Assembly: GCA_964647665.1 (NCBI GenBank) | Contig: CAZYIX010000001.1 | Span: 115,606-179,605, forward strand | DNA length: 64,000 nt | Direction of reading: 5' to 3' | Source: an uncultured Candidatus Poseidoniales archaeon | GTDB taxonomy: Archaea > Thermoplasmatota > Poseidoniia > Poseidoniales > Thalassarchaeaceae | Shown here: piece after piece, positions 2,657 to 51,656 of the stretch | Position numbering within the stretch: the stretch's first letter is position 1 | Layout: each line of letters opens with the position of its first letter | The notes under the pieces: model-generated | What the model saw: only the letters and a program-made list of their open reading frames with translations | Told to the model about the DNA's origin: nothing | The model's database searches: none | Made by a program: the position numbers and the translations under genes

Positions 2657-2720
2657 AATCTAGATATTTTCTACAACCGTTCATCTCTTGAGGTACGACC
2701 TTTCTCGGTGGTTCGATAGC

Positions 2721-3284: not shown

Positions 3285-3293
3285 GGTGAGGTG

Positions 3294-4181: not shown

Positions 4182-4352
4182 AGGCGTTTTTGACTTTCGA
4201 AGCGGATTTGAAGGCCCTTTCGACAACGAGTTGATAGGGAACCCCCCTTTCGGGTGGCTCGAGGGGAGAGCCGTCGCGGGTGCGTCGGCAGTATAGTTCC
4301 ATTAGTTGAAAAGGGTCAGCGTTTACTCTGTACTACAAATAGGTGAATTTTC

Positions 4353-35151: not shown

Positions 35152-36333
35152 ATGTTCCCCGATAGTTTGGGTGGTGGCTGCTCACGCGGGCTCCTTCCAA
35201 TTGACGCGAGAGGTGAACCAGTGCTTGAACTCCATGTGCTCGGCACGTCTTCGGCACGTTTCGCTCACGGCCGTGCAGTCTCTGGCTCAGTGTTGTCAAC
35301 TCCGGGCGGCCTCGCTCTAATCGACTGCGGCGAGGGCATGCAGCAGCGCGTTATCGATCATAATCGTGCACTGAAGGCTGCTGGAATTCAAACTCGTACT
35401 CGCCTCTCTCGCGTACGCGCAATACTACTGACGCACGGTCATCTCGACCATTGTTGGGGTGTGCTTCCATTATTGCAAACTCTGGCGTTGGACCGCAGAA
35501 AAGACCCGCTCACCATCATCGGGCCGACCAGCAAAGCAGCACTAAAGTGGGTAGCAGAACATCCTGGTGAATCGCCACCAGAAGGTAGTGGGGTGTATTC
35601 CACTGACCTGGCAATTCAGTGCGCGATGTGGCAGAGCCTTGGCAGCAAGGACGAGGACTTCGGGTATCCGATTGACTGGGTTTTGGTTCCAATCGATGGA
35701 GACGAGCCCTTTGAAGCCCCAGTGCAGCCTCTGGAAGGAGTCACACTGACGATGATTCCTACTCTGCATGGCATACCGTCGTGTGGTTGGCTGGTCGTCG
35801 GTCAAGGCAAATCTGGTCAGTTTGACCGCGACAAAGCGGATTCAGCAAATTTGACCCGAACTGAGAGGAGTCGGCTGGCTGCCGGTGAGGACGTCGAAAA
35901 GGCCGGTGAACTGCTGTTAGCAGCGGAATTTCGTGGACCTCCCCGTTTGGGACGCAGTTTGTTGGTTACAGGTGATACTGCTGCTAGCGTTGCCGGCTTG
36001 CAGCCAGATGCATTGCCAACAACGCCTGATTTGCTAATCCACGAGGCGACTTTCACCGCTGAGAATCAGGAGAAAGCGACGCTGTACAATCATTCGACTG
36101 CAGCTGATGCAGCGCTAGCTGCCACCTCTTGTGGCGCTCGCGCGCTCGGAATGACTCATTTTTCCAGCCGTATAGATAGGCTCAGTCCATCGGTAAGTGA
36201 GGCTCGTGAGCACTTTCGCGGACCAATCTGCGCCTGTTGTGAAGGAGATTGGTTTCACATTGATTCTGAAGGGACCATCACCCACAATGTGCGCTGTGAT
36301 GATGATTGGAACTCCCAGCGATTAGAGACTTGA
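35152..36333 (+). CDS. rnz: Ribonuclease Z / MBL-fold metallo-hydrolase (tRNA 3' processing)
   Basis: LHVLGTSSA...LIDCGEGMQQRV and LLTHGHLDHCWGVLPLL (HxHxDH) match RNase Z motifs I/II. Longer than typical RNase Z (insertions). Confidence 0.7.
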   Translation: MFPDSLGGGCSRGLLPIDARGEPVLELHVLGTSSARFAHGRAVSGSVLSTPGGLALIDCGEGMQQRVIDHNRALKAAGIQTRTRLSRVRAILLTHGHLDHCWGVLPLLQTLALDRRKDPLTIIGPTSKAALKWVAEHPGESPPEGSGVYSTDLAIQCAMWQSLGSKDEDFGYPIDWVLVPIDGDEPFEAPVQPLEGVTLTMIPTLHGIPSCGWLVVGQGKSGQFDRDKADSANLTRTERSRLAAGEDVEKAGELLLAAEFRGPPRLGRSLLVTGDTAASVAGLQPDALPTTPDLLIHEATFTAENQEKATLYNHSTAADAALAATSCGARALGMTHFSSRIDRLSPSVSEAREHFRGPICACCEGDWFHIDSEGTITHNVRCDDDWNSQRLET

Positions 36334-36349
36334 GTCTCTACACACCCGT

Positions 36350-38935
36350 ATGGGCGACCTTCAAAGGTGGATTGAGCAAGCCGCGTCCATGCCTCGCGCT
36401 GCGCGTGCCTCAGCACTCGCCGTTGTTCTGTTGTTGTCAATGCTCACAGCATCTGCTATTACGGTGGCTGACACTTCTGCAAGAGCCACCGCTTGTGCAG
36501 AGACAGATGTGGACGAGTTGCCGGGTTTGTTCAACGTTCTCGACCAAGGTTGCCATCAGATTGACCTTGGATATCTGACCCCCGGACAGATTGTGGAATT
36601 CGACATTTCTGCCGATGATTCATTCGATTTTCTAGTTTTCAATTCAAATGCTCTTACAGTCTACACCAACGACCAATCATACCGAGATAATGCATACTGG
36701 GAAGAGGATACTGTATTCGAGTCCTTGAGCGGCAATGCTCGTTGGCATTGGGCAGTCCCCGAAACCTCTGAGATGAGATGGTATGTCATCCTAGACAACC
36801 TCGATCACCCAGGTGATGATGACCAAGGCGACCTCGGAGGCCTCACAGTAGCAATCGATGTCAACATCAGTTTTCCATCGCAAGGAATTTGGGCGGTTCA
36901 CGACAATTTGGTCCGTCTTGGCATTAACGACCACCAACAGTTGCTTGGACCGAGTGTGCTGACTCTCGATGGTGGAACTCAAGTCTCTATTGAGGCCATT
37001 GCCTTGCAAGGCGAGCCTGACCTATTCATACTGACAGCTGCTCAGCGAGACACCTACCTTGCTGGTAATGGTGCACAGTTTCGGGTCAGTGGCGCGGACC
37101 TATTCTCAATCACGGCAGACGGTTCTGTAGCATGGACTGTGCCGTCGGAACACTCCGGTGAAGGTGTGTATCTATTTGCAGACAATGAGGATGGGCCTAC
37201 TGGCGGCGGTGATGGGGATAGCGATGCTGCAGTTACCGTCATGGTGACTTTGTTACCAGTGATTTCAGCGACCATCGATGACGACTTGCAAGGTGACTTG
37301 GATGTTGGAGATGTTGCGACGGTCACCGCGAATAACACCCCCAATTTGTCGCAACAGGTAGACGAGGATGCATACGAATGGGATTTGGACGCTGATGGAG
37401 AGATTGATGCAACCGGCGCATGGGCCGACGTATCTTTCGACACCCCCGGAGACCATGTTGTCACACTGAAGGTCGCTGGGGTGGACGGGCGTACCGACTC
37501 TACCGACCATACGATTTCAGTCAAGGACCAGACCGGACCCACCGCAATCATCAGTGGTAGCGATGACCTTATTCGGGGCTTTGGTGAGACGTTTAGCCTG
37601 TCCAGCAATTCACAGGATAATTGGATGATTGACCGTGAGGAATGGTGGGTGGATGGCTCACTATTCCAGCAGGACAACGGCACCCAGAATACCTTCACTC
37701 ACTCTTTCAGCGTGGGCGGTGCTCATCACATTGAGTTGAAGGTCTACGATGGAGAATCACTGTTTGACAATGACACTGCCATGGTTACTATTCAGGACAC
37801 TACCAGACCAATCGTAGGTTCAATCGAAGGCCCAAGTGAATTGACCGCAGGTGATAGTGGAACATGGAGCCTGCAGGCTAACGATGGAGAATCAGCCACC
37901 CTCTCATGGTCATGGGACTTCGACAAGGATGACGGTGCTAACGATATGGATGCTACTGGCTCTCAGGCAACTTGGACCTTTAGCAAGGCTGGCAATTATT
38001 GGATAACCTGTACGGTGACAAATGAGGAAAACATCTCCACTCCTACTGAAATGTTGGTTGTCGTCAAGGCGGCCCCATCTTCTGGACTTGGAGCCGGCAT
38101 AGATTTCGCCGGGCCAGCTTTCGCATTATTGTTGGTAATCGGCCTCGCTGTCGGCGGATTCTTCGGATGGCGGCGTTGGCGCGATGCACAGGCTCTCAAA
38201 GTATTGGCAAATGAGGAAATAGCTCGGATTACTGCCGAGCAGGAATCCACTCAAGAACCGACGCAGGAGGAGCAGTTGTCTATGTTCGCGCCCGCTGGTT
38301 CCCGTGTCGTTTCCAGTCGTTCGGGTGCAGAGACTGAGATGGCAGAAATCGCCGGTGCTGGCTATGGCGCATCAGAAGCAGTAGAGAGTGCAGCAATGCT
38401 TGGTGTTCAGACTCAGGTGAGTGATGGCGATTCAGAACTTCTCGCCGCCTTCGATGAGCCTGAAATCAAGCCGGAACCCGCAGTAACACCGGTACAGAAG
38501 GCAGCGGCGCAAGAGCCTGCGCCGGTCGCCGAAAAGCCGGCTGCTGGAGGGGCGACCGTTATCTCCAGTGGAATCGAACTCCCATCAGTGATGAAGCAGG
38601 CAGTTGAGACACCCGCTGAAGTTGCAGCGGCGGCACCTGCACCGGCACCAGAACCTGCCGTAGAGCCTGCGCCAGCACCCGCACCGGCACCAGCCGTTGA
38701 GTCCACACAGCCTACTCCCGCACCTGCCCCCACACCAACCGCAGAACCAACACCCGCACCTACTCCCGTTGCAGAACCAACACCCGCACCCGCAGCAGTG
38801 GCAGAGGGTACTATCGAGGTGATTGGCGCATGTGCCTCATGCGGACAGCGATACGCTGTGGATATGCCAAGTTCAATCAATGAGGCCAGAATAGATTGTC
38901 CGAAGTGTGGTTCTCGCAACAATATCCACAGATGA
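36350..38935 (+). CDS. Large surface protein: signal peptide, PKD domains, single TM, cytoplasmic Pro/Ala-rich linker and C-terminal C4 zinc ribbon
   Basis: Signal peptide (ARASALAVVLLLSMLTASA). PKD motifs (YEWDLDADGEID...HVVTLKV; WSWDFDKDDGANDMDATG...YWITCTVTNEEN). TM FALLLVIGLAVGGFFGW + RRWR. PAPAPEPAVEPAPAPAPAP linker. C-terminal CASCGQRY-x17-CPKCGSRN. Confidence 0.7.
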   Translation: MGDLQRWIEQAASMPRAARASALAVVLLLSMLTASAITVADTSARATACAETDVDELPGLFNVLDQGCHQIDLGYLTPGQIVEFDISADDSFDFLVFNSNALTVYTNDQSYRDNAYWEEDTVFESLSGNARWHWAVPETSEMRWYVILDNLDHPGDDDQGDLGGLTVAIDVNISFPSQGIWAVHDNLVRLGINDHQQLLGPSVLTLDGGTQVSIEAIALQGEPDLFILTAAQRDTYLAGNGAQFRVSGADLFSITADGSVAWTVPSEHSGEGVYLFADNEDGPTGGGDGDSDAAVTVMVTLLPVISATIDDDLQGDLDVGDVATVTANNTPNLSQQVDEDAYEWDLDADGEIDATGAWADVSFDTPGDHVVTLKVAGVDGRTDSTDHTISVKDQTGPTAIISGSDDLIRGFGETFSLSSNSQDNWMIDREEWWVDGSLFQQDNGTQNTFTHSFSVGGAHHIELKVYDGESLFDNDTAMVTIQDTTRPIVGSIEGPSELTAGDSGTWSLQANDGESATLSWSWDFDKDDGANDMDATGSQATWTFSKAGNYWITCTVTNEENISTPTEMLVVVKAAPSSGLGAGIDFAGPAFALLLVIGLAVGGFFGWRRWRDAQALKVLANEEIARITAEQESTQEPTQEEQLSMFAPAGSRVVSSRSGAETEMAEIAGAGYGASEAVESAAMLGVQTQVSDGDSELLAAFDEPEIKPEPAVTPVQKAAAQEPAPVAEKPAAGGATVISSGIELPSVMKQAVETPAEVAAAAPAPAPEPAVEPAPAPAPAPAVESTQPTPAPAPTPTAEPTPAPTPVAEPTPAPAAVAEGTIEVIGACASCGQRYAVDMPSSINEARIDCPKCGSRNNIHR
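38741..38800 (+). repeat. 30-nt tandem direct repeat (2 copies) inside the Pro/Ala-rich linker coding region
   Basis: gcagaaccaacacccgcacc occurs at 38741 and 38771 with a 30-nt period (encodes AEPTPAPxxV twice). Confidence 0.5.
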
Positions 38936-38943
38936 TGGCTTTG

Positions 38944-38977
38944 CGAGGCACCTAGGGAACCTAGGTTGCCTCGTGCG
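38944..38977 (+). terminator. Strong stem-loop immediately after the PKD-protein stop (putative transcript 3' end)
   Basis: GCGAGGCACCTAGG-gaa-CCTAGGT(T)GCCTCGTGC near-perfect 14-bp inverted repeat, 9 nt after the stop codon. Confidence 0.4.
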
Positions 38978-39025
38978 CAGGAGTCGAACACCCTTTAGGC
39001 ACATTAGGGGCCATCAAGGGTTGAG

Positions 39026-42000
39026 ATGGGCGAAGCCGCTGCACGAATGGTCCTCGCTGCACCCGAAAGGCGCAGCGTAAACGGGTTGTGGATTGCAGTA
39101 TTGCTCGTCTTGCCATTAATTGCTCCTTTTTCTGCCGCAGAAGCGGCAGATTCGGTCCGAGCCGACGATTTCGGCATCATCGAGGAATTGCATACCGTGC
39201 TGAATCAGCGGGGACAGTTGCTAGACAGTGAACAGGTGCGGCTGATTGCAGAAGGGCAACTCGCTCCAGTAAAGAACGGAGTTCGTCCTGCTGGTTCGTC
39301 CGATGCGCTTGCTAACGTCGACGAAATTTTCACTGGGATTTCGATGAGAGAATCAGTACAGGCAGACCCGATTCATCCTGCTCCGTTCCAGATACTGCTT
39401 GGAGATGAAGACGTTGCACCCGGATGGGTTGACAACGTTTGGGAGACACTCATCAACATCACTGACTACGTGATCTGGGTCCAGTTCCAAACTGAAGATG
39501 ATGGCCCTCGCCACGATTCTTTCACTACTGTGACCTTCTCTGCCTCTTTGTTCAGCCTATTCAGCGGAGACCCAATGATTCATGACGTGGATGTCGATGG
39601 TGATGGTGATGACGATGTTCGTATTGGCATCAGCATCTCTTGGGATCAAAATAATGGGTGGGGGCTATCAGGAGATGAGATTCTTCCGACTCAGTTGTGG
39701 ATAGAGCCAACCATCCAATATCAGGTCGACGTAATCGATGATTCGGACCCGATGTGGGGTGTTATGGAATTCCTGCATGTTTCATTGCTCAAATCATTTG
39801 CATATTCTTCTAACCCCTTTGAACCCGGTGAGTCCTATGTTTGGGTCATCGATTCAAATTTTACAATTCCTCCAACTGATTGGTCGCTAGACATTGGCTT
39901 CGACAGATTCTGGTTTGACCTCGGTGATTCAGCCCAATCGTTCATTCTCGCATTAACGGGAGGCATCTTTGGCGGAATTCCTGATGAGGGCGACATAACC
40001 GTCGCTGCCCTTGCAGCGCCATATACAGTACAGATTGAGAATTGGGGACAGACAAACTGTCCTGATGACTACGATCCAATGGCCGACCACGGCGCCGGGT
40101 CATTGGACCACCGCTGCCGTATTGGAGTCGGATTCGGCTACGCTCACTTTTCCCCACCAGATGGCGGCGATCGCGAATTATGGGAGCTGGCCTACATTGA
40201 GATGGCCCTGCATCCAGTGGTCAATTCAACACGCCTACCCGCTGAGGTAGACGTTACAATCCGTAACGACAACCTGCTCTCAACTGGTCCTAGCGACATT
40301 GGTGAGAAGAGTCTCACCTCCATCGAGTATTACGCAGACCGTCGCTGCGACATGTGGATTCACTTCCATGAGGACCGAAGCAACTACACGGAAAGTGCTG
40401 GTCAAGAATATGGCAATATCACCGAATCTATTGGCTGGCTGCGTGACCTTCCGTCTGGTACACTGACCAATGAAGAAATATCTCGTACTTTCCGTATGCT
40501 CGGCTCAGAAAGCAGCCCGGCGTTGCCGGGGCAGTTGCCGAGTCGACTTTCCTTTATCCTCGGAATCAAAAATTTCACCCGCGACACAACCCCCAATGTC
40601 GATGACCCTACCCTGCCGGTCAACCCCGCACATCCGCCGAATACACTGTTGTTAGTACGCTCAACCCAACCGGTTGGGAGCGTAGACTACGTTTCTTACT
40701 TCCAACGAGAGGGAGTATCTGCAGACCATCGGCTTTTGACGGTACATGTGGAGGATATTCCAACCGGACTTGTGTTATACGGTGATTTCTGGCTCGGTGG
40801 TTCAGATGATGGAGAAGTATCGACGGATACCTCTGACCTCGATTTTTTCTCTAGAATGATTGATTTCACAATTCTTGCGGTAGTCGACATTTTCCTCGAT
40901 GTGTCCAACACAATCAATGGCATTCCTAGTTCAATTGTCGATGTGATTGGTGGAAGTGCCGGTACCAGTGCAGTGGGGATGAGTGTCAATCTTGAGATGT
41001 ATACCTCATTCGAGTCTGACAGAATTCCTATGGCTTTGGGACAGGCGGACATGTCGCTTGGCTCCAGTGTGCATCCGGTGGCTACTGGAGATCACCTACT
41101 GCTCGCCAACAACACCCAATTCAATACCGTGGTGGGTAGGCATGGGCAGACTGAGCCGTTGGTTCCAATTTCAGTTAGTCTGAGCATTTCTGGCCTAAAG
41201 GCTGCTCATCTGGTCGATGATACCGATACTAATGAACAACGAGTTCAGATTACGATGAATGGCGGAGCACCGATGCGGATGCTATTCCTAGAACACGAAG
41301 GTACCGACCTTGCCAATTCTGACTTCCAAATTGTGCGGATATCGAATATGCCATCCAACCTTGCGGTGATATCTACTCCAACCACCATCACTTACAATTC
41401 GGTTGGAATCCCTGAGATTGTTTACTGTGGTAAAGAAGGCAACATCAGACAGGCGGTAGTACTGGAATCGATGCCGGGTGAATTCACCATGACTGTTTCT
41501 GATGACATTTCTTGGGCCTCAGAACAGCCAATTGGGTCCATTACGATGATGATTTCCGATTCAAGCCAGCCACGAACAATGGATGGTGATCACTTCTTAT
41601 TCGCCCGTGATTCGAATTCTGACAGCATTACACTCTCTACCCGGATGACCGGACTTCGTGAAATTGGCTACATCTCTGCTGCTCAACCGGGAATTCCCGG
41701 ACCCGACGGTCGAGGAACTGCATATCTGGTCGGACCGGGTAATCGCACCTTCTCTGCGGTTGTCATCGATGAAGTTGATCATGATTCAGTAGCAGACGGA
41801 TTGAACGCACACGTCTTGCTCGACCCGATGCCAGGCACTGTTTCACTTGAAGTTCCTGAGAGTTCAACAGGATCGAGCATAGATGTGCCTGAATTCACCA
41901 CCGAAGGTGGTTTGGCAGGTGTTGCATTCTTCCTCGGTGGATTCACCGGCTTTGGAGACAGTGTCAATAAGATGCTTGGGGACCTTGTTACCAGCGTAAC

Positions 42001-43372
42001 TGGAGGCAATGGAAGCGATGCTGCAGACCAGTTGTCATTTGGCATGCAACTAGCTGCTGATAGTGCATTTGATCTCGTCGTCGATGCATCCCAGGGCAGT
42101 ATGGGCTTGAATGAGCCAGAATGGGTACATGGCCTATCTATCACCGCAGAGGAAGCACCAGACAATCACACCGGCTTCCATCTTCGCGGTTGGCTGCCAG
42201 AAATGCCACCAGCAATTGACGTGTCCATAGGTTACCAGAACCTCTCTGTCACCGAACAATGGGATGTCAGCGTCAACATGGTAGGGTGGGAGCCAGCGAG
42301 GCCAGAATTCATCCTACAAGTTGACGGTTATCAGGGTCAAGATTTGCATATGACAATGCTTGGATTTGATACCGGAAAACCCACCGATATAAGCATTGAT
42401 ACACAGACAACAATCGACTTCCGCTCAGTCATTCCTCAACTAACTGTAGTTAGCCAATATGAGTTGAGTCAACGGCTCGGTGCTGTGCATGCAACTTACC
42501 TAGACCGTGAGGCTCAAACTCGCTACGAGATGTTGGTACAAAACATTCCCAAACACATTGACATCGCCTCCTCGCTGGGCTCTACCATCTCGATTGGAAT
42601 GTCAGTGCCAGAGGAGGACAGAGCGGCTGGGCTTGCTCTGGATTCGATGATGATCGAGATGACCTCCTTTTCCGAAGGAATGTGGTGGCCTGCTACAGTT
42701 TTCTTGCATGAATTGCCTGGTGAGATGAATCTGACAATGGAATCTTCAGATATTTTCGATATTACCAAGGAACTTTCCTTCCAAGGCATGCCCACGCTTT
42801 CTTATTCATCCAGTGGTGAGGGCATGGATATGTTCATTTCAACAGCTGGGCGAGCGATTAACTCCAAGGGCGACACTCTGCTGATGGCAGAGAATCTAGC
42901 CAGCCATATGAGTATTGAGCCAACCGAAGACTTCGGTCTGAGGGTGCGTAGCAGTGGTGATGGCATTGGCCGACTATACCTGCGCCAGACCGATATGCCG
43001 ATGCAACCGGGAATCCGGTTAGTACAGATGGAAGCTGTCGGTGAAAATCTGAAAAGCGCGACAATTCACTCCTATACACTCGGTGGCGTCTATCCCATCA
43101 TAGAAATCAGTGATGTCAAAGGTGGCCGAATGATTGCTACCGCTCGAGCCGATGTTAACCTCGGGTCGTGGACGTTAGATGGTCGCGCTGTCCTCATTGA
43201 TGCGCAAGCAACCAGTGGTATTCCAACCGGTTCCACAGTTTCGATGAATGGTGTGGCTGCTGACCTTTCCCTGCTCAATGTGCTTGGGTTTGACGGTTCG
43301 AGCACCCACTATTTGCTTCCGGAACCACTAACCAGCGGCCTTGCGACCGGAATCGCAACTTTGTTTTGGTGA
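39026..43372 (+). CDS. Giant secreted protein (1448 aa), no recognisable domain
   Basis: ATG start and N-terminal signal-like segment (GLWIAVLLVLPLIAPFSAAEAADS). Acidic Thr/Ser/Asp-rich composition, uninterrupted 4.3-kb ORF, no catalytic motif recognised. Confidence 0.7.
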   Translation: MGEAAARMVLAAPERRSVNGLWIAVLLVLPLIAPFSAAEAADSVRADDFGIIEELHTVLNQRGQLLDSEQVRLIAEGQLAPVKNGVRPAGSSDALANVDEIFTGISMRESVQADPIHPAPFQILLGDEDVAPGWVDNVWETLINITDYVIWVQFQTEDDGPRHDSFTTVTFSASLFSLFSGDPMIHDVDVDGDGDDDVRIGISISWDQNNGWGLSGDEILPTQLWIEPTIQYQVDVIDDSDPMWGVMEFLHVSLLKSFAYSSNPFEPGESYVWVIDSNFTIPPTDWSLDIGFDRFWFDLGDSAQSFILALTGGIFGGIPDEGDITVAALAAPYTVQIENWGQTNCPDDYDPMADHGAGSLDHRCRIGVGFGYAHFSPPDGGDRELWELAYIEMALHPVVNSTRLPAEVDVTIRNDNLLSTGPSDIGEKSLTSIEYYADRRCDMWIHFHEDRSNYTESAGQEYGNITESIGWLRDLPSGTLTNEEISRTFRMLGSESSPALPGQLPSRLSFILGIKNFTRDTTPNVDDPTLPVNPAHPPNTLLLVRSTQPVGSVDYVSYFQREGVSADHRLLTVHVEDIPTGLVLYGDFWLGGSDDGEVSTDTSDLDFFSRMIDFTILAVVDIFLDVSNTINGIPSSIVDVIGGSAGTSAVGMSVNLEMYTSFESDRIPMALGQADMSLGSSVHPVATGDHLLLANNTQFNTVVGRHGQTEPLVPISVSLSISGLKAAHLVDDTDTNEQRVQITMNGGAPMRMLFLEHEGTDLANSDFQIVRISNMPSNLAVISTPTTITYNSVGIPEIVYCGKEGNIRQAVVLESMPGEFTMTVSDDISWASEQPIGSITMMISDSSQPRTMDGDHFLFARDSNSDSITLSTRMTGLREIGYISAAQPGIPGPDGRGTAYLVGPGNRTFSAVVIDEVDHDSVADGLNAHVLLDPMPGTVSLEVPESSTGSSIDVPEFTTEGGLAGVAFFLGGFTGFGDSVNKMLGDLVTSVTGGNGSDAADQLSFGMQLAADSAFDLVVDASQGSMGLNEPEWVHGLSITAEEAPDNHTGFHLRGWLPEMPPAIDVSIGYQNLSVTEQWDVSVNMVGWEPARPEFILQVDGYQGQDLHMTMLGFDTGKPTDISIDTQTTIDFRSVIPQLTVVSQYELSQRLGAVHATYLDREAQTRYEMLVQNIPKHIDIASSLGSTISIGMSVPEEDRAAGLALDSMMIEMTSFSEGMWWPATVFLHELPGEMNLTMESSDIFDITKELSFQGMPTLSYSSSGEGMDMFISTAGRAINSKGDTLLMAENLASHMSIEPTEDFGLRVRSSGDGIGRLYLRQTDMPMQPGIRLVQMEAVGENLKSATIHSYTLGGVYPIIEISDVKGGRMIATARADVNLGSWTLDGRAVLIDAQATSGIPTGSTVSMNGVAADLSLLNVLGFDGSSTHYLLPEPLTSGLATGIATLFW

Positions 43373-43377
43373 AAATC

Positions 43378-44067
43378 ATGTCTGACGAGGAAGATATTGA
43401 AGGCATGTTCACTTTGGTGGGCTCACCTGATAATCCCGACCTTGAGGAGTCAGATTTGTCCGATAGTCCTACCCTGACCGACCGGGCTGAACAGATTTCT
43501 GAAGAAAAGAAACAGGAGATCACTCACGACGAGGGTTTTACCGCATCAATCGAGGAAATCGAACTCGCTGAGAAGGCTCTAGAGACCGCTAGGTTGGTTG
43601 CCCGGCAGGTCACTCCATTCCGGGTTATTCTCGCTACAGTTTTCATGGCTGCGTTGATGTTCAGCGTCTTCGCCATTGGTTTCTGGGCAGTGCCCAGAGA
43701 TGCGGTTTCAGTCGAGGTGGCTTATCTTCAGGGTGGCCCCGGTCAGGTCGTGCTGCTGCAAGTGCACAACTTGGGTAGCCGAGGTATTGGCAGCGTCAAT
43801 GTTGAGGCTGAGTTCCAAACTCTAGATGGAGAAGTACTGAATTCCACTCGTTTTACGCGTAGTTCCATTCCTGCTCACACCTCTGTTGCTGGTGATGATC
43901 TTGAGATAATGGTCTCAGGAGTTTCTGTTTGGGATGAGTACATCATTGTCGTGAGATTAGAATACGATTACTATGATGGCTCAGTTGAGGAGCAATCGTG
44001 GAGATATCAGGTCGGTGAATGGTCTAGTGAGCATTTCACTTTGAAAGCCGACCGACACTGGTTCTGA
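43378..44067 (+). CDS. Type II (N-in) single-pass membrane protein with CARDB-like ectodomain, coupled to giant gene
   Basis: Acidic cytoplasmic N-terminus, TM (VILATVFMAALMFSVFAIGFWAV), and a ~140-aa C-terminal domain with VHNLGSRGIGSV CARDB-like motif. Start is 5 nt after the upstream stop (track TTG 43366 overlaps it). Confidence 0.5.
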   Translation: MSDEEDIEGMFTLVGSPDNPDLEESDLSDSPTLTDRAEQISEEKKQEITHDEGFTASIEEIELAEKALETARLVARQVTPFRVILATVFMAALMFSVFAIGFWAVPRDAVSVEVAYLQGGPGQVVLLQVHNLGSRGIGSVNVEAEFQTLDGEVLNSTRFTRSSIPAHTSVAGDDLEIMVSGVSVWDEYIIVVRLEYDYYDGSVEEQSWRYQVGEWSSEHFTLKADRHWF

Positions 44068-44116
44068 GCAGTATCATTACGCTGACAGGATGCGATAAGA
44101 TACAAAGCGGACTCAG

Positions 44117-44144
44117 CGGCCCCCTCCCATAGGAGAGGGGGCCG
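44117..44144 (+). promoter_or_regulatory. GC-rich hairpin with CCC-ATA-GG core abutting the subtilisin start codon
   Basis: CGGCCCCCTCCC-ata-GGAGAGGGGGCCG ends 1 nt before ATG 44146. Same core as the hairpins at 1976..1988 and 8224..8236. Confidence 0.35.
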
Positions 44145-44145
44145 A

Positions 44146-47100
44146 ATGAGGAAGTCAATATTGCTGATGACGCTGTCGATTTTGTTGTTGGCTAGCCTAT
44201 CTCCGCTGCTTACTCAGCCAACTGAGTCATACGGTTCTACTGCGATTGATGATGATTCTCGCAGCGTTGAGAGAGTATCAATTCCGGCTGTCGCTGATGC
44301 AATCAGTGATATTGAGCATTCGCAGTTATTACTGGGCGTCGAGATATCTCGCCAATCCAACGCAGACACCCACCTCGGAATGTGGACGACAAGTGGCCTT
44401 TCCTCAAACATGGACATTCCAACGCAACTCCGTTTACCACGTAATGACATCGCCTTGGCCATAGTTGATGGTGACGTAGGATTGTGGGATGCTCGCAGTT
44501 CTCTGTCAGAGGTTTCTGGGCTTGAGGTGCGTGCCCACATCCCCCCATCTGGGTTCTTGCTGCAAGGGTCTGCCCAGTCGCTAGAAGCAGCAAGAGGTGC
44601 TGAAGGTGTGCTGTCAGTCCATGCCGTGCCTTTGGCATTCATGCTCGATAGTGAATTGATTGAGATGTACATCGATGCACAATCAGTTGTCAGTTCTGGC
44701 CTCGCTGAAGGCGGCGAGCCGGTGACCTCGGTCAGGATGCATGGTTGGCGCCTCGCTGAGACAGCAATGCCACTCGACCATCTTTCTCTGTCAGGATACA
44801 ATTTCGACCTCGATGCGAGAGCAGATGAACTGCTCATCGACCATCGCGATATTGACAATGGACGTCACGATGGTCTGCTTCGACTCGTTGACCTACCAGC
44901 CGCGGCAGCCTCTCCATCGCTCTCATGGCTGAGCCTTGAGCCGGTTTGGATGCCACATAACAACGAAGCCTTCGAGAATATCCACGCCGATGACGTGGAG
45001 AATTTCTTTCTCACTGGCCTGAATGGCTCTGGACAACTGGTAGCGGTTGCAGATTCAGGAATAGACCGTGACCATGGCGACTTCGGCCAGCGAATTCAGC
45101 ACGTAGAATCGGTTACTTGGGGCGACTCAAGCACTGAAGATACCCACTCAGGTCATGGAACTCACGTGGCCTGCACGGTTCTCGGTGACGGCTTCAGAGG
45201 AGCATATGCCGGAATAGCTCCACAGGCGGAACTGTGGTTCCAAGCCATGGAAGATGACTCTACTGGTGATTTCAGTGGAGCGAGCATGGACTACATGCTG
45301 CGGACTGCTTACGAAGGCGGGGCTCACATTCACACAAATTCATGGGGCGCTCACCAGAATTACGGTGAATACACCTCTAGCAGTGAGGACGTCGACAGCA
45401 GGACCAGCCAGTATGACCAATACTGGTCCTACGATGGTTTGGTAGTGTTGGCTTCGGCTGGAAATGATGGACCTGATTCTGACACAGTGTCTCCTCCTGC
45501 AACAGCAAAGAATGTCATCGCAGTTGCCAACACTCACAATCGCGGCGGCGGCGCCCCTGACACTCTATCGCAGAGCAGTAGCCGCGGCCCTACCGATGAT
45601 GGCCGCATCAAGCCAGACGTTTCTGCCCCGGGCGCTTGGGTTCGCTCATGTCGTTCACAAGATGCGACAGAAACTTCTGGAGCATCATGGTCTAGTCAGT
45701 GGTATCTGGAATACTCCGGCACTTCGATGGCCGCTCCCAACGCGGCAGGCGCAGCCACCTTGATTCGCGAATACCTGACTGAAGTTGCAGGCCGCCCATC
45801 ACCACAGGGCGCTCTAATCAAGGCGATGTTGATTCTTGGCGCTGAGGATATTGGTAGCAGAAATATCCCGAATAACGACGAAGGATGGGGTCTGATTAAT
45901 TTGGCAAATTCACTGTTGCCCGGCTCAGATACCGGAGTTTGGGTAGCAGACCGTTACTATGTGCGCTCAGGCAATACCGAGGAGTTCCTGTTCAATGTCT
46001 CTCGCAGCAACACACCGTTCAAGGTGGTGCTAGCATGGTCAGATTATCAGGGGAATTCATGGGCCAGCAAGCAGTTGCAGAACGACCTTGATTTGGTGGT
46101 AATTGCCCCCGATGGTACCGAATACTTGGGTAATGACTTCTCGAGCGGTCGTTCGACTACCGGTGGAACTAGAGATTCGACCAATAACGTCGAGGTCACG
46201 TTGGTCGACAATGCAGACATGGGCATTTGGACTGTCCGAGTGACCGATGTCAGTCACGGTGGCCAGCGTAGTGAGCAGTCGTTTGCAGTTGCAGTTCGTG
46301 GCGCAGGAGTCAACGACCTGCGCAGTGACCCCCTACCTCTTGCCGAAACCTTCACCCTCTCAACTGAGATTCCTCAAGTCAACGATGTGACCACAATCTC
46401 CATCCAAATTCAGAATCAAGGTGGTGGTCCTGCCAATGGGTTGCCGGTACAGGCAATAGCAGGCGGTCAGAACCTCGGAGAAGTCACCCTTGAACTCGGC
46501 CCCGGCATGATTCGTTGGGCAACATGGGATTGGACTCCAATTACAGAGGGAGAGCAGGCAATCACCATCCGAGTCGACCCATATGATGTAGTATCTGAAA
46601 TTGATGAAGCCAACAACCTATTCCAGACAACAGTTGCAGTCAGCGCTCCGGGTGTGCGCATTTCGACTGATGAAACCACCAAACGTCTCGTTGACCCATC
46701 GACGACCAGTACGTCTTGGGATTTTGTTCTGAAAAACACTGCTTTACTGCCGACAAACGCCAGTGTTTCAGCGACGAAACCAGTATTCCTCACTACCGGA
46801 CAGGAAATGACTTCCTGGTTCACTTCGTTTAATCTCACTACTTTCCAACTGAACGGTTCTGAGGAGTCGAGAGTCGGTTTCACGCTTGTGCACTCATCTC
46901 CTACTTCGCCCCCGTCTCCTGGATATTACCAATTCACAGTTACAGCGATGGACGTTGACAATAATGTTGCATTCCCTCTAACGTTGACTCTCGATGTACC
47001 AGTACTACCTGACGTCTCATTCCAAATGCCATTCACCACCCTTTCCGTTTCACCGGTTTACCCGACCGAATTCACTGTTGAAATCCTCAACGATGGCAAT

Positions 47101-48816
47101 GGAATGCAGGGCTACAACCTGTATCTAGATGGTCCTGTTGGATGGCGACTGGGCCTCGATGAACTTGGGACTACAGAAGGAGCTTCATCGGGCTCAACCG
47201 GCTCAATCCCGGTCTCGGGAACCAGAGCAGTGGCAATGACCCTGTATCCCCCTGCCTATCCTGCATCAGCAGGGCAATCACTGGTCTCACAGATGCGTGT
47301 AATCAGTCAGATGGACCCTGATTCTCAATGGGTGCTCGAGATTCCAATGGAGGTATCTCTACACGAGCAGATTGAGATGGAAATAGATATCGAGTATGGT
47401 GTACTACGCCCAGATTCAGTTCTTACTCTACAATACTCAATCACTAATATCGGCAACGCAGATATGACTCTGCATCCCGACTTGAATGACAGGCCGGGTG
47501 GCTGGGATGTGACTGCTGGAAGTGGCTCGTTCACAGTGCCTGTTGGAGAATCACGAGCCTACCTGATTAACCTCGAAGGCAATGGATATGCGGTTGGTGG
47601 AGAGATGAATTTCCACTTATCGACAATTAATGGCTACCGTTACACATGGCACGGGTCCATGGAAGTCACCGCACCTCCGCAACCAAGCCTCTCCTTCTGG
47701 TCAGTTAGAATTGGTGATGGAGAGGAAGCCATAGGAGACCCATATGGCGCGGGTGAGCACCCTCCTGGTGCTCCTGGTGTAACATTTTCATGGTTGATCG
47801 GAAATACTGGCAGTGAGCCTTGGACTCCTAGCGTGGATTTGGAACATCCTGTTGGCTTGGATTGGTTCAAGGCGTGCGATATCCCCGGCGAGGTCATTCC
47901 TGACGAATCGGTCATCGTCGCATGTTCGTTATTTATTCCACCTGATACCGTAGCCGGTAGTCAGCCAGAGATTACTTTCACGATGAATATCGATGGCTTG
48001 TTGCTCAGTGATACTCTTACTCTGTATGTTGCAGCAAATCCGATTGTGGTTTGGCGGCCACTTTCACTTGATGAATTCACAGAAGGTAAGCAAGGTGAAG
48101 TTATGCTTTCAATCGAGAATATCGGCAATACGCAGATTTCCGAAATGGTGGTGATTGATGCCCCTGAAGATTGGAAGGCCGAAGTTGATGGTAGCCCCGC
48201 TTTGACTCTGAACATCGGTGAGACTCGAAATGTACGGCTGCTGATTACTCCAGCAGATGTCGGTGAGCACAGCTTGTTAGTCAGCATCGGAGAGGATGGT
48301 GATATCGCAGATGCTGTCCATTCGATAACAGTCAACGTAAATCGCGACGTGAATAGTAACAGCGGTAGTGGTTCTGCCCTAACTGTCGCCGCGTTTATTT
48401 TGTTTGTACTAGTCATTGTAGGAGCGGTGCTTTCCGTGCTTTTGTTTATCCCACGAAAGCAAGAAACTAGTCCCTCGAAAAATATGGCTGCAGCGACCAT
48501 GCCGCCACCATTGAATGCACCAGCAGCACTTGCCACCTCCACCACCTCTACAACCTCCACCACCACCACATCCTCCGCAACCTCCGCAGCACCCGCTACG
48601 GTTGCTTCAGCAGCAGAGAAGAAGCAGGCAACTGCGCCCGCTGTTATTTGCTGGGGTTGCAATAAAAACATCACAGGTCCACGCCGTGCTTGCCCATCTT
48701 GTGGAGCACGGTATCACGCCGAAATCTCAGACTGTGCGGGGGATAAATTGGATGAATGCAAGAACTGTGGTGACAGTGCAGACGAGTTCGTCGATGAGGA
48801 AGGGGAGGGTGATTGA
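44146..48816 (+). CDS. Giant subtilisin-like serine protease (S8) with multiple CARDB-like domains, TM helix, Ser/Thr-rich cytoplasmic linker and C-terminal double zinc ribbon
   Basis: Signal peptide (SILLMTLSILLLASLSPLLT). Catalytic triad motifs VAVADSGIDRDHGDF (Asp), HGTHVACTV (His), GTSMAAPNAAGAATL (Ser). Repeated NxGxxxA CARDB motifs. TM (LTVAAFILFVLVIVGAVLSVLLFIP). TSTTSTTSTTTT linker. CWGCNK-x8-CPSCG...C-x6-CKNCG, then an acidic end. Confidence 0.85.
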   Translation: MRKSILLMTLSILLLASLSPLLTQPTESYGSTAIDDDSRSVERVSIPAVADAISDIEHSQLLLGVEISRQSNADTHLGMWTTSGLSSNMDIPTQLRLPRNDIALAIVDGDVGLWDARSSLSEVSGLEVRAHIPPSGFLLQGSAQSLEAARGAEGVLSVHAVPLAFMLDSELIEMYIDAQSVVSSGLAEGGEPVTSVRMHGWRLAETAMPLDHLSLSGYNFDLDARADELLIDHRDIDNGRHDGLLRLVDLPAAAASPSLSWLSLEPVWMPHNNEAFENIHADDVENFFLTGLNGSGQLVAVADSGIDRDHGDFGQRIQHVESVTWGDSSTEDTHSGHGTHVACTVLGDGFRGAYAGIAPQAELWFQAMEDDSTGDFSGASMDYMLRTAYEGGAHIHTNSWGAHQNYGEYTSSSEDVDSRTSQYDQYWSYDGLVVLASAGNDGPDSDTVSPPATAKNVIAVANTHNRGGGAPDTLSQSSSRGPTDDGRIKPDVSAPGAWVRSCRSQDATETSGASWSSQWYLEYSGTSMAAPNAAGAATLIREYLTEVAGRPSPQGALIKAMLILGAEDIGSRNIPNNDEGWGLINLANSLLPGSDTGVWVADRYYVRSGNTEEFLFNVSRSNTPFKVVLAWSDYQGNSWASKQLQNDLDLVVIAPDGTEYLGNDFSSGRSTTGGTRDSTNNVEVTLVDNADMGIWTVRVTDVSHGGQRSEQSFAVAVRGAGVNDLRSDPLPLAETFTLSTEIPQVNDVTTISIQIQNQGGGPANGLPVQAIAGGQNLGEVTLELGPGMIRWATWDWTPITEGEQAITIRVDPYDVVSEIDEANNLFQTTVAVSAPGVRISTDETTKRLVDPSTTSTSWDFVLKNTALLPTNASVSATKPVFLTTGQEMTSWFTSFNLTTFQLNGSEESRVGFTLVHSSPTSPPSPGYYQFTVTAMDVDNNVAFPLTLTLDVPVLPDVSFQMPFTTLSVSPVYPTEFTVEILNDGNGMQGYNLYLDGPVGWRLGLDELGTTEGASSGSTGSIPVSGTRAVAMTLYPPAYPASAGQSLVSQMRVISQMDPDSQWVLEIPMEVSLHEQIEMEIDIEYGVLRPDSVLTLQYSITNIGNADMTLHPDLNDRPGGWDVTAGSGSFTVPVGESRAYLINLEGNGYAVGGEMNFHLSTINGYRYTWHGSMEVTAPPQPSLSFWSVRIGDGEEAIGDPYGAGEHPPGAPGVTFSWLIGNTGSEPWTPSVDLEHPVGLDWFKACDIPGEVIPDESVIVACSLFIPPDTVAGSQPEITFTMNIDGLLLSDTLTLYVAANPIVVWRPLSLDEFTEGKQGEVMLSIENIGNTQISEMVVIDAPEDWKAEVDGSPALTLNIGETRNVRLLITPADVGEHSLLVSIGEDGDIADAVHSITVNVNRDVNSNSGSGSALTVAAFILFVLVIVGAVLSVLLFIPRKQETSPSKNMAAATMPPPLNAPAALATSTTSTTSTTTTSSATSAAPATVASAAEKKQATAPAVICWGCNKNITGPRRACPSCGARYHAEISDCAGDKLDECKNCGDSADEFVDEEGEGD

Positions 48817-51656
48817 TGGCATATTCTAGTCAACGAGCATCTGCATTCCTGCGCGCAGGCGGCCTTTTGAGTAAAGCGTGGTGTCCGTCTATTATGCGCA
48901 GGCGTACGCGAAGCCGAGCAGTATTACTCTCCGCCTTGCTTCTACTGCTTCTCGCAGCTCCTTTCAGCGCACCTACGGTGGCTGCTGATGGTCGTGATGC
49001 CAGCGTTTCTCTGTACACAGACTCGACTGGCAAGGAGGCTTCACCGGGAACTCCGGCAGAGTATACAATCACCGTGTACAACGATGGCGATGTCGATATC
49101 ACAGTGCAGTTGAGTACTCAGGAGGATGCCGGTGGCTGCCAAGGGTGGTCAAGTTCTATCGAACAGGTACAGAGTCAGCCAATTGCACCAAGTTCATCCG
49201 AGCAGGTTACCTTGACAGTCAATGTTACTGAAGGGGAGCAGACCTCCGATGAGTGCGACACCACCGTGTTAGCGACAGCCAACAACGCTGAACCCGGTTC
49301 ACCGGGACCCCCAGCACAGGCAGATGTTACTGTTACCACCACCAAAACCGAAGGTAGTGGTAATGCAGTATATGGGGTCGAGTTGTCAACTTCTACCGCT
49401 ACCAAAACCTACAACGGCGAAGATACAGTTGAGTGGACAGTCACTGTGAAAAATACCGGTCAAGCGCAGGCTCAAATTTCTATTGATATGACTGATTCAG
49501 CCTCCTGTCGTTCCGATGGGCTCACCGCCAGTGTTGACCCACAGACCATGACACTGCAGAGTGACGAGGACGAGCAAGCAACAGTCAGTGTTCCGGTTCC
49601 AAACGGAGACCAGACCGAGGCGGGCAGCCACTGTTTCATTGTACATGCCACGGTAACCAATGACCCCAATCAGCAGAATCAGGCTCAGGACAACCTCTCT
49701 ATCACACTCAACATTCCCGAATTACATGAATGCGATTCCTCACTCGCTTCAAATAGCATGAGTTTGGACCCGGGTGAATCGGCCTCAAACTCGTTCAACC
49801 TCGATAATACAGGCAATAGTGACTGGACTGTTACATTCGGGACTAACGGCCAAAAGGCATCTTGGGTCGACTCATCAACAAGTAGTAGGCTGCTTCCATA
49901 CAACAATGGTAACGGAGCAACATCATTCACATTCTCAGTAACTGCTGATGATAGTTTGCCGGCGAATGAACAGACTATCATCAAAATACAAGCCCTCGAT
50001 GGCAATAGCCTGCGTTGTGAATCGACTCTGACAGTAGTCGTAGGCCAATCTCACGGTGCTACTGCCAGCCTGTCTAGTCAGACGCTGTCAAGGGTTGACC
50101 CCGGCTCCTCTGATTCAACCTCATTGACGATTACCAATACAGGCAATGGGGCAGAGACCTACAGTGTCGGCACCTTTGGCTCACCCGCCGGATGGGGAGT
50201 CAGTGTTGAGGAGAGTTCGGTTACCTTGCAGGGTAAACATTCGCCACAGAATGAGCGACAGACATCGATGTATGTCAGCGTCTACGTTCCTGAAGACGCT
50301 TTGGCAGATGAGGAAGTAACAGTCACCATCACAATTAGTGATAGCAGCGGTGGAACCACCTATGCGACGGTTGAACTCAGCGTCACAGTGGCAGAGCGTC
50401 ATGAGATGTCAACCACGGTGCTTTCCGTCGACCAAACTGGGCGCAGCGACTCGATTATTCAGTTCCCGTTCACAGTTGATAACACAGGTAACGTACAGGA
50501 TTCGTTCCGCCTCCGTGCCTGTGACCCCAGTCAGCCCAGCGGTTGTATCTCTCCACCTTGGCCGACTCGCTTCGTCGATGGCACCGGACAAGAAATTCAG
50601 AATTTGGTGATTGGTTCTGGAGAATCTGACACCGCTTACCTTGAGGTCAGTGTTCCGAGTGAAAATGAAGCGGGTGAGGGCGACTACCTTCAGGTGAACA
50701 TCAAGGTCACAATCGTCGATGCACCTTCAGTGGATCATCAGCAGATGGTGACTGCACGTGTATCGAATTACGAATACATGATGCAACTTGTTCTCGCCAA
50801 CCCACAGGGTGCTCCTGACGCTACCAGCGCGGTATTACCTCCAGGTGGCTCGGTTACATTCTCCATGTTGGTCAGTGATGTAGGTACTTCACCTTACATC
50901 GAGAACGCGTTGTTCACTTCAAATGGCATGGAATCAACCATCTCACGTGATCTTGAGATTGAAGGAATGACATACCAATTCTCGGGTCTGCCTTTCGAAG
51001 TCTCCGATGACAGCATGGTCTACCAAGTGAATATCACTCTAGCTGTTCTTGAGGGAGTTGCAAACGGTGCCGATGGCATCGTACACATTTGTGCCTCATC
51101 GATGCGAAACACCGCGAGCCCCTCGTGTGTGAGTATCTCAATGACTGTACAAACACTGCATCAACTCAGTGTGGATGTTGAGGGTGGGCCAATACACAAT
51201 ACGACCCACCCCGCCTTCGCTGATTACATCGTAATCATCAGCAACGATGGCAATGTGGATGAGACTGTCGTAATCACTACTACCGATGGACTGCGCGGCT
51301 GGACAATCGACCTCAACGAGACCGAAGTCGACATCGCTGCAGGTGAGGAAGCCTCGGTTCGCGTTCGTGTGAAGCCACCTCACGAAATGTCTGTGGATGA
51401 CAGTTTTGAGTTCACTTTGACAGTCGCTCCTAAGGACGAACCAGTTGCATCCCAACCAATCGACTTGACGGTGAATGCCGAGATGGATAACAGTCTGTTT
51501 GGCTTGACTAATTCTGTAATTGACATCATTTCTTACGTCATTCTTGCAGTCATAGGTATTCTGATCATTATCACCCTTCTTAACAATCGTCGTCGAAGCG
51601 AGATTTGGTCCGACGAAGAGGAATTAGAAGAAGATGAGGAATTCGACGAAGACTGA
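48816..51656 (+). CDS. Large surface protein of tandem CARDB-like (NxGN) domains with C-terminal TM anchor and acidic cytoplasmic tail
   Basis: Signal peptide after a basic RRRTRSR N-region. At least 7 repeats of the VxNxGN motif (YNDGDVD, KNTGQAQA, DNTGNSDW, TNTGNGAE, DNTGNVQD, SDVGTSPY, SNDGNVDE). TM (VIDIISYVILAVIGILIIITLL) then EEELEEDEEFDED tail. Start ATG overlaps the upstream stop (TGATG); track TTG 48813. Confidence 0.7.
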   Translation: MAYSSQRASAFLRAGGLLSKAWCPSIMRRRTRSRAVLLSALLLLLLAAPFSAPTVAADGRDASVSLYTDSTGKEASPGTPAEYTITVYNDGDVDITVQLSTQEDAGGCQGWSSSIEQVQSQPIAPSSSEQVTLTVNVTEGEQTSDECDTTVLATANNAEPGSPGPPAQADVTVTTTKTEGSGNAVYGVELSTSTATKTYNGEDTVEWTVTVKNTGQAQAQISIDMTDSASCRSDGLTASVDPQTMTLQSDEDEQATVSVPVPNGDQTEAGSHCFIVHATVTNDPNQQNQAQDNLSITLNIPELHECDSSLASNSMSLDPGESASNSFNLDNTGNSDWTVTFGTNGQKASWVDSSTSSRLLPYNNGNGATSFTFSVTADDSLPANEQTIIKIQALDGNSLRCESTLTVVVGQSHGATASLSSQTLSRVDPGSSDSTSLTITNTGNGAETYSVGTFGSPAGWGVSVEESSVTLQGKHSPQNERQTSMYVSVYVPEDALADEEVTVTITISDSSGGTTYATVELSVTVAERHEMSTTVLSVDQTGRSDSIIQFPFTVDNTGNVQDSFRLRACDPSQPSGCISPPWPTRFVDGTGQEIQNLVIGSGESDTAYLEVSVPSENEAGEGDYLQVNIKVTIVDAPSVDHQQMVTARVSNYEYMMQLVLANPQGAPDATSAVLPPGGSVTFSMLVSDVGTSPYIENALFTSNGMESTISRDLEIEGMTYQFSGLPFEVSDDSMVYQVNITLAVLEGVANGADGIVHICASSMRNTASPSCVSISMTVQTLHQLSVDVEGGPIHNTTHPAFADYIVIISNDGNVDETVVITTTDGLRGWTIDLNETEVDIAAGEEASVRVRVKPPHEMSVDDSFEFTLTVAPKDEPVASQPIDLTVNAEMDNSLFGLTNSVIDIISYVILAVIGILIIITLLNNRRRSEIWSDEEELEEDEEFDED

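Follow-up and report, generated by a model that had tools for sequence, protein, structure and literature searches.

The window analysed here comprises 64,000 nucleotides of an uncultured Candidatus Poseidoniales archaeon (assembly GCA_964647665.1, contig CAZYIX010000001.1, positions 115,606 to 179,605) and encodes a membrane-anchored S8 (subtilisin-family) protease of 1556 amino acids (aa). The extreme C-terminus of this protease carries a compact module of conserved Cys and His residues, henceforth referred to as the finger, which is nearly exclusive to this one S8 protease of the order Poseidoniales. The C-terminal region as a whole is best explained as a stop-transfer transmembrane (TM) helix with an RKQ flank, a variable and disordered tether, and a two-zinc finger of ~47 aa that would serve as a docking module, a reading to which a probability of roughly 0.45 is assigned. 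Feature coordinates are collected in Table 1, and nucleotide positions refer to the window unless a locus is named.

In the window protease the finger reads CWGC-x10-CPSCGARYH-x5-C-x7-CKNC-x6-F. The putative zinc ligands are C1502, C1505, C1516, C1519, H1524, C1530, C1538 and C1541, designated C1 to C4, H, and C6 to C8 below, and the conserved non-ligand residues are W1503, P1517, G1520-A-R-Y1523 and F1548. A preliminary description of this DNA, made from the sequence alone, had located the Cys cluster correctly but placed six rather than seven residues before CKNCG and named the module a double Cys4 ribbon. The finger contains seven Cys, not eight; His1524, within the invariant CGAR[YF]H motif, is the remaining ligand of the conserved set, which is C4-H-C3 rather than two Cys4 units. 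Seven of the 11 Cys of the protease fall within the 40 residues from aa 1502 to 1541 (hypergeometric P ~1e-9 for a fixed window), and only four are found in the ~1400-aa ectodomain.

Conservation of the finger was assessed in 120 orthologs of 40–80% identity, obtained by a search of 5.8 billion clustered proteins; those with names are labelled Poseidoniales (Thalassarchaeaceae, Poseidonia sp.), Thermoplasmatota or Euryarchaeota. The finger is kept in 115 of the 120, of which 114 match the family pattern CWxC-x10/11-CPxCGAR[YF]H-x3-7-C-x5-7-CxxC-x6-F and one (P0024) has a shorter H-x3-C spacing. This retention is far beyond chance, and the conservation of the Cys cluster in homologs on which the preliminary description depended was thereby borne out. 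The invariant columns of a 38-sequence alignment are C, W, C, C, C, G, R, H, C, C and C. The eight putative ligands (C, C, C, C, H, C, C, C) form four pairs, as in the RING-like binuclear treble clefs, and would be enough for two zinc ions; their order is that of PHD and RING-CH fingers. Mean pairwise identity among the orthologs is 45% in the finger compared to 21% in the TM helix and 26% in the linker, which makes the finger a conservation island. The best-conserved region of the protease is the S8 catalytic domain, at 70%.

The cytoplasmic location of the tail is well supported as a prediction, because a positive-inside bias is combined with a signal peptide preceding a secreted-type ectodomain and with CxxC/His zinc signatures. 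A C-terminal TM helix was found in every full-length ortholog. In 114 orthologs, the 15-aa flanks of this helix contain on average 0.73 Lys plus Arg residues before it and 3.02 after it, with the count after the helix being higher in 110 and lower in none. The tether varies between 19 and 180 aa among orthologs (P 20%, A 16%, S 10%), and the C-termini mostly end in F-[VIL]-x-[EA].. and are frequently acidic. Taken together, the anatomy of the tail and its cytoplasmic topology are considered highly likely to be correct as described. The preliminary description had likewise proposed a cytoplasmic tail and listed a single TM helix followed by RKQ, a Ser/Thr linker and an acidic end, all of which were confirmed in the translation; its start of the TM segment at 48380 lies 1 nt out of frame, the codons beginning at 48379. 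A weak NCBIfam GltJ match (E 0.006, aa 1410–1499), which spans the TM helix and the low-complexity linker, was dismissed as compositional.

The ectodomain to which this tail is attached is that of an intact enzyme. PF00082 scored 150 bits over aa 294–582 against a gathering score of 21.8, and the catalytic triad motifs DSGID303, HGTHV337 and GTSMAAP525 are all intact, in agreement with the earlier assignment of a 1556-aa S8 protease. That assignment also included CARDB repeats; Pfam detects one CARDB domain (aa 740–827) and one NEW3 domain.

The distribution of the finger was examined by scoring a finger hidden Markov model against 1.84 billion representative proteins. At E≤1e-3, 93 matches were obtained, ~60 of which are true members, and most true members are the S8 protease or its metagenomic fragments. 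The finger is always situated at the extreme C-terminus, after at least one TM helix where this could be judged, many of the matches being short fragments. In addition, 185,579 species genomes were scanned for [AG]CPxCGAR[YF]H, which yielded 247 relatives, and the best 80 of these 247 were examined. Of these, 78 bear the label Poseidoniales or that of an unclassified archaeon (Euryarchaeota, Methanobacteriota, Thermoplasmatota), and two bear a bacterial label; the Poseidoniales carriers belong to both Thalassarchaeaceae and Poseidoniaceae and include the Marine Group II chromosome assembly CM001443. The finger ends a complete S8 open reading frame (ORF) in 68 of the 80 loci, the other 12 consisting of 10 contig-end cuts and two short ORFs. 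The possibility that the finger is a separate small ORF was ruled out by this conserved in-frame fusion. The two contigs with bacterial labels, CALDQY010000007 ('Rhodobiaceae bacterium') and CAXQWT010000049 ('Salipiger bermudensis'), are probably mis-binned Poseidoniales contigs in bacterial metagenome-assembled genomes.

Two further finger-bearing architectures, both rare, were the only others found among the model matches. One (P0172 and P0177; locus L004, 413–2938) is a protein of 820–840 aa with a signal peptide, an ectodomain of ~400 aa without a Pfam match, a TM helix, and a cytoplasmic region of ~350 aa with Trp-rich repeats, e.g. EYPxGSGNWWxW, ahead of the C-terminal C4HC3 finger. No obvious partner gene was observed in its neighbourhood at L004 (P0172). 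The other (P0176; loci L005–L007) is 261 aa long; three TM helices at its N-terminus precede an acidic linker and a finger that is very close to that of the window protease and has a C-x-C second knuckle (SCSCGARYH). It is a real gene, since six cluster members sit on separate contigs, and these contigs are too short to be informative about its neighbourhood. The proposal in the preliminary description of a recognition module shared by membrane-tethered extracellular enzymes does not agree with this distribution, in which one S8 orthologue accounts for the 68 complete loci and the two other architectures are rare.

An AlphaFold2 model built from the finger alignment had a mean predicted local distance difference test score of 86.4. 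The fold is probably a two-zinc cross-brace of the RING/PHD/ZZ-like kind, in which C1, C2, H and C6 would make a treble-clef site and C3, C4, C7 and C8 a ribbon site; this sharing of the ligands is suggested by fold matches alone. A profile search against PDB sequences returned weak top matches to the GEF-H1 C1 domain (E 0.0027) and the ZitP zinc ribbon (E 0.0054), followed by further weak matches to adenylate-kinase lids, the Kaposi's sarcoma-associated herpesvirus K3 RING-CH finger and the PHF23 PHD finger. The CxxCGxxYH...CxxC arrangement of the adenylate-kinase lid resembles C3, C4...C7, C8 of the protease finger.

Neither the protease tail nor the tail of the neighbouring PKD protein, which is described below, gave a match above the curated threshold with any Pfam or NCBIfam model. 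With the RING-clan models (Prok-RING_1, zf-RING_4, zf-C3HC4_3) no match at the gathering score was obtained: Prok-RING_1 appeared below threshold in 31 of 38 finger members (best E 2.9e-4) and gave 11 bits with the window sequence against a gathering score of 29.1. The finger shares its ligand order and the C-x2-C-x4-H step with PHD fingers, but has no Trp before C7 and an H-to-C6 spacing of x3-7 in the S8 orthologs, the x2 spacing being present in a few members only (P0185, P0187, P0189 and P0191). PHD was absent among the 25 most frequent Pfam matches of the finger members. C1_1 was weakly matched by 13 of the 38 members, and a conserved His 12 residues upstream of the C1 ligand, as in C1 domains, was not found.

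Prokaryotic families of RING-like fingers, represented in Pfam by Prok-RING_1, were reportedly described by Burroughs, Iyer and Aravind in 2011. Compared to the RING-like binuclear treble clefs in general (RING, U-box, ZZ, B-box, PHD, C1 and the prokaryotic Prok-RING_1), the protease finger has far shorter loops than PHD or RING, with 5–7 residues between C6 and C7, and, save in the subset named above, lacks the x2 step from H to C6. It differs further in the invariant Trp directly after C1, in the GAR[YF]H motif, and in being always C-terminal and membrane-tethered with no ubiquitin-like genes nearby. The finger is therefore judged to be an undescribed family, most probably with a compact RING/PHD/ZZ-like cross-brace fold in which the zinc coordination is predicted. 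Small zinc fingers are a well-known class; what is new is a lineage-specific addition to the prokaryotic RING-like binuclear fingers, in an architecture outside all Pfam and NCBIfam models searched. No description of the tail was found in the literature on Poseidoniales with zinc, subtilisin or peptidase.

As to function, the finger would dock onto another protein while held on a flexible leash. Through it the surface protease would be coupled to a partner in the cytoplasm or close to the membrane, and docking would control the placement of the protease, its assembly with other products of the envelope gene cluster described below, or its turnover. This role is put forward tentatively, because the finger has invariant non-ligand residues (W, R, Y/F, F), a neutral charge and a long flexible leash, and because a precedent exists in ZitP of Caulobacter. 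The mean net charge is ~0 across finger members (-7 in the window sequence), and nucleic-acid binding was rejected as unlikely on that basis. In ZitP, a 43-residue cytoplasmic zinc ribbon is sufficient for localisation via PopZ binding (PMC5182065), which would make it the closest working precedent by analogy. ZitP consists of an N-terminal MJ0042/zinc_ribbon_5 finger (PDB 2nb9), a tether, a TM helix and a periplasmic DUF3426 domain; its finger is N-terminal, bacterial and binds one zinc, whereas the protease finger is C-terminal, archaeal and predicted to bind two. The partner PopZ is alpha-proteobacterial, with no homologue shown for Poseidoniales. PMC4506424, citing Burroughs et al. 2011, connects the binuclear treble clefs of prokaryotes with membrane-protein folding, stability and proteolysis. 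A conserved cytoplasmic finger would imply that the cell handles the protease from the inside, through positioning, assembly, turnover or signalling, and a finger of ~50 aa offers a small, soluble and expressible handle for finding partners.

Several observations weigh against a cross-brace with a docking role. No match at E≤1e-3 was obtained when the finger model was compared with the PDB by Foldseek, and the top, non-significant matches were rubredoxins mixed with RINGs. Such a mixture is in line with a published account in which RING-like domains combine a treble clef with a rubredoxin-like ribbon (PMC4506424). The commonest sub-threshold Pfam match was to the double zinc ribbon family DZR (PF12773), observed in 37 of 38 members (best E 2.8e-5). 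The finger is also dispensable for the protease in some lineages, since four orthologs (P0003, P0025, P0055 and P0058) have lost it and carry a Gln-rich, Cys-free tail in its place. For P0003 and P0025, found at loci L092 and L093, the gene cluster is intact; the S8 orthologs there (L092 10001–14395, L093 10001–14536) have replacement tails that are Gln/Asn/Pro-rich and Cys-free. The named members of two of the four finger-less protein clusters are Thalassarchaeaceae, and L092 comes from a Thalassarchaeaceae metagenome-assembled genome (GCA_030747485.1). Finally, no candidate cytoplasmic partner gene was found in the neighbourhoods examined. The finger-less loci L092 and L093 constitute a natural knockout that is useful for phylogenetic profiling.

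The DZR matches, together with the rubredoxins at the top of the Foldseek list and the classical ribbon spacing of CxxC-x10-CxxC, are what would be expected if the tail consisted of two independent, sequential zinc ribbons, C1 to C4 forming one and H, C6, C7 and C8 the other, and if it were the same module as the PKD tail. DZR and the finger do have several CxxC knuckles within ~45 residues in common. However, DZR has four CxxC pairs, whereas the finger has three CxxC plus a His and a lone Cys, its third pair being H...C with variable spacing, and the window sequence scored 16.9 bits against a DZR gathering score of 27.3; tandem ribbons are accordingly regarded as unlikely. Less probable again is a purely topogenic or stabilising device, in which a fast-folding zinc domain locks the C-terminus inside, or confers zinc- or redox-dependent stability, with no specific partner. 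The invariable position of the finger behind a TM helix where judgeable, its loss in some clades and the ecological relevance of zinc availability for Poseidoniales (PMC6461757) are all compatible with such a plug, but a plug would need neither invariant non-ligand residues (W, P, G-A-R-Y, F) nor a tether of up to 180 aa, and the type I membrane protein encoded immediately downstream manages with a short charged tail. If the finger were only a structural plug, its significance would be minor.

An effector role of the RING type, in which the finger acts as an E3 or adaptor that recruits SAMP-type conjugation, the proteasome or Cdc48, is considered very improbable. It would make the protease an archaeal ectodomain-TM-RING protein that ties an extracellular enzyme to conjugation or degradation machinery (SAMP/ubiquitin-like protein (Ubl), proteasome, Cdc48) or to transmembrane signalling. 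In the eukaryotic PA-TM-RING family (RNF13/GRAIL) and in ZNRF3/RNF43, a signal peptide is followed by an ectodomain, a single TM helix and, in the cytosol, a finger of the RING type, an overall design that the archaeal protease would share. These proteins are E2-dependent ubiquitin ligases with a C3H2C3 RING-H2 finger and a non-catalytic ectodomain, whereas the archaeal protein has a complete S8 protease in that place. In the 20–25 kb neighbourhoods examined, no gene for E1, E2, a Ubl or JAB was found, no finger member reached the gathering score of a RING-clan model, and we know of no E2-type system in Poseidoniales. If true, this role would supply a prokaryotic counterpart of the PA-TM-RING/ZNRF3 design in highly abundant surface-ocean archaea. 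Marginally less credible is a tail that is released by regulated proteolysis as a nucleic-acid-binding regulator, or that folds onto the membrane as a C1/FYVE-like lipid-binding head. A tether this long and flexible would be compatible with both mechanisms, and the best PDB sequence match and the C1_1 matches noted above point towards a C1 domain, but the finger is neutral on average and acidic in the window, the N-terminal His that defines C1 domains is absent, and no intramembrane protease is encoded in the cluster. An extracellular, disulfide-bonded Cys-rich end has only the number of Cys in its favour. It was rejected on topology and is given almost no weight: the positive-inside bias is strong, a signal peptide and a single TM helix together leave the C-terminus on the inner side, and paired CxxC motifs with an invariant His are signatures of a zinc site.

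Table 1 Features of the S8 protease and of the envelope gene cluster in the window.
Feature	Position (nt)	Strand	Evidence
PKD-domain type I membrane protein, 861 aa	36350..38935	+	Translation, Pfam PKD, TM, conserved synteny
Single Cys4 zinc ribbon of PKD protein, CASCGQRYAVDMP-x9-IDCPKCG	38831..38908	+	C828, C831, C850, C853
Secreted protein, 1448 aa, no Pfam domain	39026-43372	+	ORF list, Pfam scan
Type II membrane protein, 233 aa, acidic cytoplasmic N-terminus	43366-44067	+	ORF list, TM position; no Pfam match
Membrane-anchored S8 (subtilisin-family) protease gene, 1556 aa, stop codon included	44146..48816	+	ORF list, translation, Pfam, 120 Poseidoniales orthologs
Signal-peptide-like N-terminal hydrophobic segment, ~aa 1-28 (MRKSILLMTLSILLLASLSPLLTQP...)	44146..44229	+	Hydropathy peak at aa 5; read by eye
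S8 catalytic domain, aa 294-582	45025..45891	+	Pfam PF00082, E 1e-43; triad motifs D303, H337, S527
CARDB immunoglobulin (Ig)-like domain, aa 740-827	46363..46626	+	Pfam PF07705, E 1.8e-17
NEW3/NPCBM-associated Ig-like domain, aa 1312-1370; last ectodomain module before membrane	48079..48255	+	Pfam PF10633, E 1.4e-6
Lone TM helix LTVAAFILFVLVIVGAVLSVLLFIP, aa 1412-1436	48379..48453	+	Kyte-Doolittle mean 3.3 over 19 aa
RKQ, positive-inside stop-transfer flank	48454..48462	+	Lys plus Arg asymmetry, 114 orthologs
Low-complexity Pro/Ala/Ser/Thr tether, aa 1440-1501	48463..48648	+	Contains TSTTSTTSTTTT (aa 1464-1475, 48535-48570)
C4-H-C3 two-zinc finger, aa 1502-1548 (predicted zinc binding)	48649..48789	+	Ligand pattern, ortholog conservation
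Acidic C-terminal end VDEEGEGD	48790..48813	+	Translation
Ig-like type I membrane protein, 947 aa	48813..51656	+	Pfam FixG_C/NEW3-type Ig domains; TM at aa 905

The PKD protein encoded upstream of the protease had been presented in the preliminary description as another instance of the same design, with the same kind of tail. The design is indeed the same. Each is a type I protein whose large ectodomain is followed by a single TM helix (aa 586–607 of the PKD protein, nt 38105–38170), a low-complexity tether, which in the PKD protein is long and composed of Ala, Pro and Glu, and a conserved C-terminal module of zinc ligands; both are encoded in one conserved gene cluster, and the ectodomain-TM-zinc-module design is real and recurrent in that cluster. 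The tail itself differs, being a single Cys4 ribbon, CASCGQRY-x14-CPKCG at aa 828–853, that is conserved in 16 close orthologs and is kept in divergent clades (L088–L091) as C-x2-C-x3-[FY]-x-[VL]-[DE]-[ML]-P...A-C-P-x-C. Its fold is similar to that of the ZitP finger, and the model points to a mononuclear four-stranded zinc ribbon of the ZitP/bL33 type. None of the MJ0042/ZitP-type models (PF13717, PF13719, TIGR02098) exceeded its curated cut-off with the PKD tail; scores were 18.6 bits for Zn_ribbon_4 (gathering 30.3), 25 bits for Zn_ribbon_8 (34.4) and 13.3 bits for TIGR02098 (20.9). A protein search with a PKD-tail profile returned three short fragments only and missed known orthologs, and is thus uninformative on other carriers of the ribbon.

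The two tails were aligned by hhalign without gaps over 33 columns with a probability of 76%. The four Cys of the PKD ribbon were placed on C3, C4/C7, C8 of the protease finger with an identical 18-residue spacing, and from this sequence correspondence the two modules may share a ribbon core. With this mapping the protease would have added the C1, C2/H, C6 site, as a cross-brace predicts. The finger and the ribbon are still different modules that were lost independently in different clades. The finger-less S8 proteases at L092 and L093 adjoin PKD proteins that retain the ribbon, and at L003 the protease keeps its finger while the PKD orthologue (2329–4572) has an acidic, Cys-free tail and no ribbon. 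At L088 (2011–4585) the PKD orthologue was called as two ORFs of 623 aa and 222 aa, the latter encoding the ribbon; a frameshift or an assembly error is the probable cause.

The protease and the PKD protein belong to a five-gene, same-strand envelope cluster (36350–51656) that is present in both Thalassarchaeaceae and Poseidoniaceae. Gene order was compared between the window and eight loci (L001–L003 and L088–L093, L001 and L002 being the same place). The order L15e, PRC-barrel, metallo-beta-lactamase (MBL)-fold, PKD protein, domain-less secreted protein, type II membrane protein, S8 protease, Ig-like type I protein and nuo operon was the same in the window and all eight, the MBL-fold gene being absent from L089 alone. 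In the loci the domain-less secreted protein is 1450–1560 aa long and the type II membrane protein 190–230 aa. The tail of the Ig-like type I protein, NNRRRSEIWSDEEELEEDEEFDED, is short and charged and contains no zinc module, and its orthologs in the other loci likewise have short charged tails with no Cys; a general cytoplasmic recognition module of membrane-tethered extracellular enzymes, as first suggested, is not supported. The cluster has the appearance of a core set of envelope genes in the order and may encode a surface complex or an S-layer-like assembly.

In ocean surface waters no planktonic archaea are more abundant than the uncultured Poseidoniales (Marine Group II), for which a life based on protein degradation has been proposed (PMC6461757). 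The S8 protease probably belongs to the core equipment with which these cells meet their food, because the five-gene cluster was found in every locus examined and in both families.

Some further observations were made on genes in and around the cluster. The listed TTG start of the Ig-like gene overlaps the stop codon of the protease (48813–48894). The Met of MRRRTRSRAVLLSALLLL near 48894 is the probable true start, since orthologs begin at a signal peptide. The MBL-fold gene (35152–36333; L001 1257–2384, L090 945–2039, L091 1410–2483) gave weak-to-solid matches to PF23023 (Anti-Pycsar Apyc1) in some loci, and the MBL-fold protein of the window ends in a Cys-rich stretch (CACCEGDW...C). A 279-aa protein encoded on the minus strand (31181–32020) ends in ...DTPGFTALIGVGGLAAAALIRPSKKTEDK, which resembles a PGF-CTERM archaeosortase sorting signal; TIGR04126 scored 18 bits on it against a cut-off of 24.5. 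As this PGF-CTERM-like signal occurs on the 279-aa protein, the genome seems to have two or more different means of tethering proteins to the cell surface. EF-hand domains were observed fused to or beside nuo subunits (Oxidored_q3/Proton_antipo_M) at L003 (23922–24506), L091 (23083–24054 and 24363+) and L088 (24329+), and recall the Poseidoniales-specific calcium-binding modules mentioned in PMC9258230.

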